The notes beneath the pieces are model-generated. The model had not been told where the DNA came from. It saw only the letters and a program-made list of their open reading frames with translations, and searched no databases. A stretch of 3,817 nucleotides of DNA from a virus (lineage: Duplodnaviria > Heunggongvirae > Uroviricota > Caudoviricetes). Every line of letters starts with the position of its first letter. Position 1 is the first letter of the stretch. A program made the translations under genes and the position numbers. The stretch covers positions 1-3,817 of the IMG/VR virus record IMGVR_UViG_2671180921_000020; one strand, 5' to 3'. Of this stretch, positions 2,344 to 3,817 are shown piece by piece.

Positions 2344-2511
2344 ATGCACTTCCGAGTTACAGGTGAATGGAATGGAGAACCATTCAACAGAGTTATCGAA
2401 GCAGAGAACATCAATGACTGCTATGACCACTGGATGATATGGGCGCAGATAGCACATGCAGACATAACCAATATTCGAATTGAAGAACTGAAAGAACACC
2501 AAGCCGCCTGA
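2344..2511 (+). CDS. Small hypothetical protein (55 aa), not in the supplied ORF track
   Basis: ATG at 2344 lies 7 nt after GGAG (2333-2336) and directly follows an in-frame TAA. Translation: MHFRVTGEWNGEPFNRVIEAENINDCYDHWMIWAQIAHADITNIRIEELKEHQAA. Stop TGA at 2509-2511 falls inside the loop of the downstream terminator hairpin. Occupies the position immediately upstream of xis. Confidence 0.5.
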   Translation: MHFRVTGEWNGEPFNRVIEAENINDCYDHWMIWAQIAHADITNIRIEELKEHQAA

Positions 2512-2526
2512 TGGCGGCTTTTTCTT
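2501..2526 (+). terminator. Rho-independent terminator immediately upstream of xis/pI
   Basis: 8-bp GC-rich stem AAGCCGCC (2501-2508) / GGCGGCTT (2513-2520) with loop TGAT, followed by a T-rich tract TTTTTCTT (2519-2526). Confidence 0.65.
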
Positions 2527-2565
2527 GCGTGTAATTGCGGAGACTTTGCGATGTACTTGACACTT
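2525..2565 (+). promoter_or_regulatory. pI-type CII-dependent promoter with CII recognition repeats TTGC-N6-TTGC
   Basis: TTGC at 2525-2528 and 2535-2538 separated by 6 nt (GTGTAA) is the canonical lambda CII site architecture. The surrounding sequence matches lambda pI as I recall it. A weak -10 is expected around 2551-2557, so the transcript would start inside xis. Confidence 0.7.
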
Positions 2566-2769
2566 CAGGAGTGGAACGCACGCCAGCGACGCCCAAGAAG
2601 CCTTGAAACAGTTCGTCGATGGGTGCGCGAATGCAGGATATTCCCTCCTCCGGTTAAGGATGGAAGAGAGTATCTGTTCCACGAATCAGCGGTAAAGGTT
2701 GACTTAAATCGACCAGTAACAGGTAGCCTTTTGAAGAGGATCAGAAATGGGAAGAAGGCGAAGTCATGA
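2551..2769 (+). CDS. xis: Excisionase Xis (lambda-type, 72 aa)
   Basis: Protein MYLTLQEWNARQRRPRSLETVRRWVRECRIFPPPVKDGREYLFHESAVKVDLNRPVTGSLLKRIRNGKKAKS matches lambda Xis as I recall it. GGAG RBS sits 8 nt upstream, and the 3' end overlaps the int start by 23 nt as in lambda. Confidence 0.9.
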   Translation: MYLTLQEWNARQRRPRSLETVRRWVRECRIFPPPVKDGREYLFHESAVKVDLNRPVTGSLLKRIRNGKKAKS

Positions 2770-3817
2770 GCGCCGGGATTTACCCCCTAACCTTTATATA
2801 AGAAACAATGGATATTACTGCTACAGGGACCCAAGGACGGGTAAAGAGTTTGGTTTAGGCCGAGACAGGAGGATAGCAATCACTGAAGCAATACAGGCCA
2901 ATATTGAGTTATTTTCAGGACACAAACACAAGCCTCTGACAGCGAGAATCAACAGTGATAATTCTGTTACGTTACATTCATGGCTTGATCGCTACGAAAA
3001 AATCCTCGCCAGCAGAGGAATCAAGCAGAAGACACTCATAAATTACATGAGCAAAATTAAAGCAATAAGGAGGGGGCTGCCTGATGCTCCACTTGAAGAC
3101 ATCACCACAAAAGAAATTGCGGCAATGCTCAATGGATACATAGACGAGGGCAAGGCGGCGTCAGCCAAGTTAATCAGATCAACACTGAGCGATGCATTCC
3201 GAGAGGCAATAGCTGAAGGCCATATAACAACAAACCCGGTCGCTGCCACTCGCGCAGCAAAATCAGAGGTAAGGAGATCAAGACTTACGGCTGACGAATA
3301 CCTGAAAATTTATCAAGCAGCAGAATCATCACCATGTTGGCTCAGACTTGCAATGGAACTGGCTGTTGTTACCGGGCAGCGAGTTGGTAATTTATGCGAA
3401 ATGAAGTGGTCTGATATCGTAGATGGATATCTTTATGTCGAACAAAGCAAAACAGGCGTAAAAATTGCCATCCCTACAACATTGCATGTTGATGCTCTCG
3501 GGATATCAATGAAGGAAACACTTGATAAATGCAAAGAGATTCTTGGTGGAGAAACCATAATTGCATCTACTCGTCGTGAACCGCTTTCATCCGGCACAGT
3601 ATCAAGGTATTTTATGCGCGCACGAAAAGCATCAGGTCTTTCCTTCGAAGGGGATCCGCCTACCTTTCACGAGTTGCGCAGTTTGTCTGCAAGACTCTAT
3701 GAGAAGCAGATAAGCGATAAGTTTGCTCAACATCTTCTCGGGCATAAGTCGGACACCATGGCATCACAGTATCGTGATGACAGAGGCAGGGAGTGGGACA
3801 AAATTGAAATCAAATAA
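2747..3817 (+). CDS. int: Site-specific tyrosine recombinase, lambda integrase Int (356 aa)
   Basis: Full-length ORF starting MGRRRSHERRDLPPNLYIRNNGYYCYRDPRTGKEFGLGRDRR (lambda Int N-terminal arm-binding domain) and ending ...SDTMASQYRDDRGREWDKIEIK. Catalytic residues are at lambda positions (R212 codon 3380-3382, HELR at H308/R311, Tyr342 codon 3770-3772). TAA stop at the last bases of the window. Confidence 0.93.
   Translation: MGRRRSHERRDLPPNLYIRNNGYYCYRDPRTGKEFGLGRDRRIAITEAIQANIELFSGHKHKPLTARINSDNSVTLHSWLDRYEKILASRGIKQKTLINYMSKIKAIRRGLPDAPLEDITTKEIAAMLNGYIDEGKAASAKLIRSTLSDAFREAIAEGHITTNPVAATRAAKSEVRRSRLTADEYLKIYQAAESSPCWLRLAMELAVVTGQRVGNLCEMKWSDIVDGYLYVEQSKTGVKIAIPTTLHVDALGISMKETLDKCKEILGGETIIASTRREPLSSGTVSRYFMRARKASGLSFEGDPPTFHELRSLSARLYEKQISDKFAQHLLGHKSDTMASQYRDDRGREWDKIEIK

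Follow-up and report, generated by a model that had tools for sequence, protein, structure and literature searches.

In a 3,817-bp stretch of DNA (the window), which runs from the exo-xis region to int of a lambda-like phage or prophage and reads in the same sense as leftward (pL) transcription, positions 2501–2565 very probably form the t′I–pI junction of a lambda-type integration module, in which an intrinsic terminator is set against the CII-activated promoter of the integrase gene. The arrangement is more than a chance one because of homology, conservation and covariation, and not because of either motif by itself.

Gene context and elements of the junction

On its + strand the window encodes an Ea22-like protein (PF13935), proteins of the DUF551, DUF4752 and phrog_625 families, a protein of 61–63 amino acids (2072/2078–2263; phrog_16329) within an AT-rich island, and three genes of the lambda integration region taken from the open reading frame list and family searches. 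These are ORF55 (2344–2511; phrog_676, E = 1.7e-39), so annotated in M60848 and the homologue of lambda orf-55 (lambdap35 in NC_001416); xis, for a 72-amino-acid excisionase (2551–2769; PF07825 Exc, E = 3.9e-41); and int, for a lambda-type tyrosine integrase of 356 amino acids (2747–3817; PF00589 with the PF09003 arm-binding domain), which overlaps xis by 23 nt. The Xis protein is 98.6–100% identical to those of lambda, 434 and HK022. By megablast, homology to lambda-like phages starts at 2290, and 2290–2800 is 97–99.6% identical to lambda, 434, HK022, 2B8 and many Stx phages. However, no single phage record or complete E. coli genome covered more than 66% of the whole window, and the upstream gene set is therefore a new mosaic: this combination of exo-xis genes is absent intact from the phage records and complete E. 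coli genomes searched. We noted by eye two possible slippage sites in this part of the window, a C7 homopolymer inside the phrog_625 reading frame (1895–1901) and an A9 run (2039–2047) about 25–30 nt upstream of the possible starts of the AT-rich reading frame.

The t′I terminator hairpin, located on the + strand at 2501–2520 by terminator scan, folding, homology and covariation, is formed by the arms AAGCCGCC (2501–2508) and GGCGGCTT (2513–2520) around a TGAT loop (2509–2512). It has eight pairs, six of them G–C, and a minimum free energy of −15.4 kcal/mol (z = −3.86), with an equally good fold in 1 of 200 shuffles. The T-tract TTTTTCTT (+ strand, 2519–2526), read directly from the sequence, is immediately 3′ of the stem and would give the U-tract of the terminator; it is T at seven of its eight bases, with a single interrupting C, and its final two Ts are the opening two bases of the CII box. 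The preliminary description of this DNA had started the hairpin at 2501 and drawn the T-tract at 2519–2526, and both are exact to the base by scan and direct reading. The overlap that it had seen between the T-tract and the first TTGC (2525–2528) is likewise real in the sequence, and the same 2-nt overlap recurs in the annotation of the 434 genome OL657226. The element thus has three features of an intrinsic terminator, namely a GC-rich stem of at least five pairs with a short loop, a U-rich tract on the 3′ side, and pairing kept in evolution. The window holds six terminator-like sites against 3.0±1.8 expected, and the scan alone is not significant.

The stop codon of ORF55 (TGA, 2509–2511) makes up the first three bases of the hairpin loop. 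A ribosome stopping there could cover the right arm and hinder folding of the hairpin on tightly coupled transcripts. In 434 and HK022 this problem does not arise, as the hairpin begins only 59 nt past the end of ORF114. No convincing IHF-like site (WATCAANNNNTTR) was seen by eye in or near the hairpin. An Rfam search at a permissive E-value returned only asX2, a Xanthomonas sRNA, on the − strand of window positions 2501–2606 (20.5 bits against a gathering score of 70, E = 0.9). We rejected this match as chance, as its score is far below gathering, and no known RNA family is present.

The CII binding site, TTGC-N6-TTGC (TTGCGTGTAATTGC; + strand, 2525–2538), was found by pattern search and is the same as the annotated CII site of 434 pI and as that of lambda. 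It occurs once in the window, against a chance expectation of 0.32, and at least one such site appears in 54 of 200 shuffles, so that on the motif alone the CII box is weak evidence. The −35 hexamer of pI, GTGTAA (+ strand, 2529–2534), was transferred from the ‘minus_35_signal pI’ of OL657226 through an identical alignment; it sits between the two TTGC repeats and matches TTGACA at three of six positions. The probable −10 hexamer, TGTACT (+ strand, 2552–2557), was placed by spacing; it overlaps the xis start codon, has four of six consensus matches and would leave a spacer of 17 nt from the −35, and the promoter feature of OL657226 ends at the equivalent of 2556. A sigma-70 scan makes no call at pI, and core elements as weak as these would fit dependence on an activator. 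By geometry, 7 nt past the −10, and by equivalence to the lambda start, transcription from pI would begin at a T at 2564 (+ strand), 13 nt inside xis and within the 2560–2570 range given in the preliminary description. In lambda, pI presumably initiates with UTP at about 29065, equivalent to 2564 of the window. A position of pI within xis is documented (PMC2951348).

We also noted that four TTGY/TTGR repeats, phased at about one helical turn, run through the promoter region (TTGC at 2525, 2535 and 2546, TTGA at 2557). OL657226 labels the additional repeats, at N7 spacing, as ‘pseudo-CII sites’.

A second, intact terminator-like hairpin, found by scan, fold and alignment, lies farther upstream on the + strand (2305–2324), with arms GAACTCGC and GCGAGTTT around TACG, followed by TGTTTTAT; the segment 2295–2340 folds at −13.6 kcal/mol (z = −3.16). 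This hairpin is the ‘t4-lambda’ of the ARNold predictions for lambda (PMC4195576). We rejected its identification as tL4, as alignment with the annotated tL4 of 434 and HK022 puts tL4 at the preceding, truncated hairpin, of which the right arm and T-tract only (GGATTTCTTTTAT; + strand, 2290–2304) remain. The left arm of tL4 was lost at a mosaic junction near 2290, and the hairpin at 2305–2324 and t′I are therefore left as the barriers; the insulating point may thus be sharper in this window. Upstream of that junction, in place of lambda ea8.5, is the AT-rich island (1958–2304; GC about 0.33 against 0.44–0.53 in the flanks), which has a moron-like look. No convincing promoter was found for the island; the promoter scan gave no convincing + strand promoter upstream of its reading frame or at 2325–2500, and a TTGCAT/TATAAT pair at 1982–2005 was rejected as its spacer is only 12 nt.

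Identity with annotated elements and conservation among relatives

We compared the junction with the annotated records of 434 and lambda. M60848 (phage 434) has a terminator “t′-I” directly before xis, and “t-L4” farther upstream. OL657226, a complete 434 genome of 2022, annotates in succession ‘terminator, PMID:6305007’ and ‘pI promoter; CII-controlled’, together with the −35 of pI and a CII binding site whose first 2 nt also belong to the terminator feature. By alignment, the window does not differ from the pI region and xis start of 434 at any position from 2514 to at least 2570. In comparison with lambda, 19 of the 20 hairpin bases are the same, and the sole difference in the junction is C2518, which is T in lambda; this makes the third stem pair G–C instead of the G·U of lambda and lowers the folding energy to −15.4 from −13.0 kcal/mol, with pairing kept. 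Los et al. (PMC4195576) list the same lambda hairpin as the ARNold prediction ‘t5-lambda’. No regulatory feature is annotated at the t′I–pI site in the lambda records J02459 and NC_001416, and the terminator is not treated in the paper announcing the 434 genome. The window element lies directly upstream of pI and xis and downstream of the last exo-xis reading frame, and is homologous in sequence to t′I of lambda and 434, as an orthologue would be. An intrinsic terminator at 2501–2526, as had been proposed for this DNA, is thus well supported by the match to 434 t′-I in position and sequence and by covariation, and a CII-dependent pI from 2525 onward, as predicted, by the identity of the window with the CII site and the CII-controlled promoter annotated in OL657226. 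The 131-nt junction of the window type is 100% identical in O157:H7 and O145 genomes, and the junction is present in 2590 of 5426 complete E. coli genomes.

To see how the stem varies where the promoter does not, we used 123 loci, from IMG/VR and reference genomes, that share an identical 29-nt pI core. These contain 12 hairpin variants. The third stem pair is G·U in lambda and the majority, G–C in the window type, or A–U, and is mismatched in three loci; the top pair is C–G in the ORF55 context and A–T in the 434/HK022 context; and one locus has a double change from C–G to U–A. Over eight distinct hairpins, 85.9% of cells pair, against 30–53% with slid partners. Both sides have changed in three pairs, and the covariation score was reached in none of 500 shuffles. 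These comparisons indicate that the RNA structure of the hairpin is under selection. Coding constraint cannot explain its conservation, because in 434 the hairpin, with the end of ORF114 59 nt upstream, is entirely non-coding. The sequence on the 5′ side is variable: ORF55, ORF114 and at least three other fusions join 30–60 nt before the hairpin, while the hairpin and pI are constant. As the hairpin is kept through these upstream exchanges, the terminator travels with pI, xis and int, and not with the upstream gene.

Among more distant relatives at least six unrelated hairpin sequences occupy the equivalent spot. Cedecea colo (L146; Xis 82% identical) has two tandem terminators, the second being GGCTGC...GCAGCC followed by TTTTTTAT, which runs into TTGCGTGTAATTGC; two IMG/VR loci (L150, L152) carry variants of the Cedecea colo hairpin, and a third (L151) has GGCCGCC...GGCGGCC. 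In Salmonella phage SI8 (Xis 80%), ACCAGC...GCTGGT and TTTTTC are followed by TTGCGTGAATTTGC, and in Flyfo siphovirus Tbat2_3 (Xis 43%) two terminators precede TTGCGTTCCCTTGC. In a group of seven IMG/VR loci (the L158 group), GGAGC-TTCG-GCTCC followed by TTTTTTG lies about 110 nt upstream of xis and about 24–34 nt from a variant box, TTGCGAGTAATTGC; the box is adjoined by CGTTCCC, with no T-run. Judging from the gap in this group, direct abutment of terminator and box is not obligatory. A terminator was present in every examined relative with a CII-type box, and Providencia and Pseudomonas phages with Xis of 42% identity had neither.

We quantified this association over 225 loci with 45 distinct upstream segments. 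In each of the 45, a terminator-like site lies no more than 80 nt from the box, against a rate of 6.2% in random segments of those loci, and in 44 of 45 the stem ends 4–8 nt before the box; the same distance holds for hairpin types A–D and F. The 45 segments are not mutually independent, whereas the unrelated hairpins, at least six in number, are. The hairpin, its overlap with the box, the identity to annotated elements of lambda and 434, the selection on RNA structure and the conserved architecture are, then, established here.

In Tbat2_3 (L231, 283–389) the first base of the TTGC-N6-TTGC is 44 nt ahead of the annotated xis start; in lambda this distance is 26 nt. It is possible that a pI-like transcript in this phage includes the xis start codon, which might change the logic of Int without Xis.

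The scan of genome contigs with Xis returned mostly lambda DNA contaminating unrelated assemblies, with Cedecea colo as the one informative relative. Lambda-identical xis regions (Xis 99%) occur in assemblies of organisms that include Shewanella, Chromatium, Pseudomonas, Oceanobacillus, Neobacillus, Nocardioides and Enterococcus (loci L127, L128, L130, L133, L135, L138, L140 and others) and most likely stem from contaminating or spiked-in lambda DNA. Several of the contigs are about 48.4 kb long and have names that indicate low coverage, and others are short. A record named ‘Campylobacter phage CJLB-4’ (MW057783.1, 48,361 bp; H34, H94) carries lambda xis/int at 97.1% DNA and 98.6% Xis identity and at lambda-like coordinates, and is probably lambda, mislabelled or as a contaminant.

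Proposed working of the junction and alternative explanations

Neither a cII nor an N gene was found in the 3.8-kb window, from the exo-xis region to int, in the open reading frame list and by domain and family searches, and cognate CII and N regulators are therefore assumed. Termination, CII dependence and a start site near 2564 would carry over to the window by homology. On the + strand (the pL direction), transcripts without N-type antitermination would fold the hairpin at 2501–2520, and the RNA would probably be released in the U-tract at about 2525–2527, some 25 nt before the xis ATG, so that in a lysogen Xis and Int could not be expressed by stray exo-xis transcription. When N-modified, pL transcripts would read through, carrying xis and int. 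CII on the TTGC-N6-TTGC (2525–2538) would recruit RNA polymerase to the weak −35/−10 pair, and transcription from about 2564, inside xis, would give Int without Xis. The preliminary description had assigned Int without Xis to pI transcripts and both genes to N-antiterminated pL transcripts, which is the standard lambda logic stated in PMC2951348 and PMC5300877.

A terminator at this place would most plausibly be selected for shielding xis and int from stray transcription in the lysogen, in which Xis together with Int would cure the prophage. Such an insulating role requires an upstream source of unmodified transcription, and none of the + strand candidates at 2325–2500 is convincing. In lambda, pL transcripts lacking N stop kilobases upstream, at tL1. 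Since N-less transcripts would stop there, and the hairpin at 2305–2324 intervenes, t′I would be the last fail-safe and not the main gate. The main determinants of the ratio of Int to Xis are the location of pI within xis and sib retroregulation. Thus, the logic ascribed earlier to the junction stands, but to call it ‘governing’ the decision between integration and excision was an overstatement.

It could be argued that the hairpin is only the 3′-end terminator or mRNA stabilizer of orf55, and that its proximity to pI is genome compaction without insulating meaning for xis and int. Indeed, the ORF55 stop lies in the hairpin loop, a common gene-end arrangement, and terminators at gene ends are frequent in phage genomes. 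We consider this explanation improbable, however, as the hairpin remains with pI through replacement of the gene before it, is placed as in the window with respect to the box in 434 and HK022, where ORF114 ends 59 nt before it, and has six unrelated hairpins in that same place elsewhere. An action mainly on the opposite strand, stopping antisense transcription from int/xis into the exo-xis region as a bidirectional terminator would, is very unlikely. The scan also calls the hairpin on the − strand, whose RNA folds at −16.1 kcal/mol (z = −2.74), and an A-rich run, GAAAGAA, lies upstream of the hairpin at 2490–2496; but the U-tract after the − strand stem, GGTGTTCTTT, is poor and displaced, the T-runs of the examined types B, C, D and F are on the + strand side only, and no − strand promoter was found downstream by the scan. 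A chance hairpin next to a chance TTGC repeat is barely conceivable. The frequency of the repeat expected in the window (0.32) and the merely 2-fold enrichment of terminator-like sites would allow it, but the comparative data, that is, identity to annotated elements, covariation, and 45 of 45 contexts against the 6.2% background, effectively refute it.

We give little credence to a role of the region at the DNA level for pI, in which the T-rich tract (−45 to −38) is a UP-like element or a contact for alpha-CTD or CII and the RNA hairpin is incidental, though such a role could add to termination. Of the six hairpin types that closely abut the box, five have a T-run immediately before the first TTGC, and its position relative to the putative start would match the location of a UP element. 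Against this, compensatory stem changes point to selection on pairing and not on sequence, the box of the L158 group is adjoined by CGTTCCC and not by a T-run, and unrelated stems replacing one another are the expectation for a terminator. An intrinsic terminator insulating xis and int remains the preferred reading. Within it, we regard as unlikely that the sharing of bases between U-tract and CII box is functional coupling and not mere compaction. CII bound just downstream might act as a roadblock that raises termination at t′I, in which case read-through into xis would be shut off exactly as pI turns on; polymerases terminating at t′I might transiently occlude the CII box; or the T-tract might double as a UP-like element for pI. 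The 4–8-nt distance from stem to box in five independently derived hairpins would be compatible with selection for tight juxtaposition.

Relation to known systems

The t′I–pI junction as such is already known: it belongs to the classical int/xis control region of lambda, and deposited 434 records annotate it. We take the t′I paper cited in the annotation to be that of Benedik, Mascarenhas and Campbell (1983), ‘The integrase promoter and T′I terminator in bacteriophages lambda and 434’. The present comparison makes a modest addition: the terminator is kept with pI, xis and int through many mosaic exchanges and is replaced by at least six unrelated hairpins, which argues for real selection in lambdoid prophages to block unmodified transcripts from reading through into xis. 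Terminator and box together also serve as a simple guide for the annotation of promoters of the pI type and of the limits of modules in prophages.

An insulating terminator has been described at the end of Tn916, where it stops stray upstream transcription that would prematurely express the genes of the element and is overcome by antitermination (PMC11658703). It differs from t′I in belonging to an unrelated element with an unrelated sequence and in not being fused to an activator-dependent promoter. In lambda itself, tI/sib, downstream of int, is also a terminator whose read-through by N-modified polymerase separates pL from pI transcripts (PMC2951348). It differs in lying beyond the int stop and attP, outside the window, and in acting post-transcriptionally, through RNA processing and decay, and not as an upstream insulator. 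In the other CII-dependent promoters of lambda, pRE and paQ, the TTGC-N6-TTGC flanks a poor −35, as it does at pI of the window; neither is known to us to have an upstream terminator directly against it. The OL657226 annotation gives the consensus as ‘ttgynnnnnnttgy’. The closest counterpart is the t′I–pI junction of lambda and 434. The stem of 434 and HK022 has a different, shorter sequence (GCCGCA/TGCGGC) than that of the window, but the junction is alike in its position between orf55 (or ORF114) and xis, and its CII box, −35, −10 region and xis start are the same.
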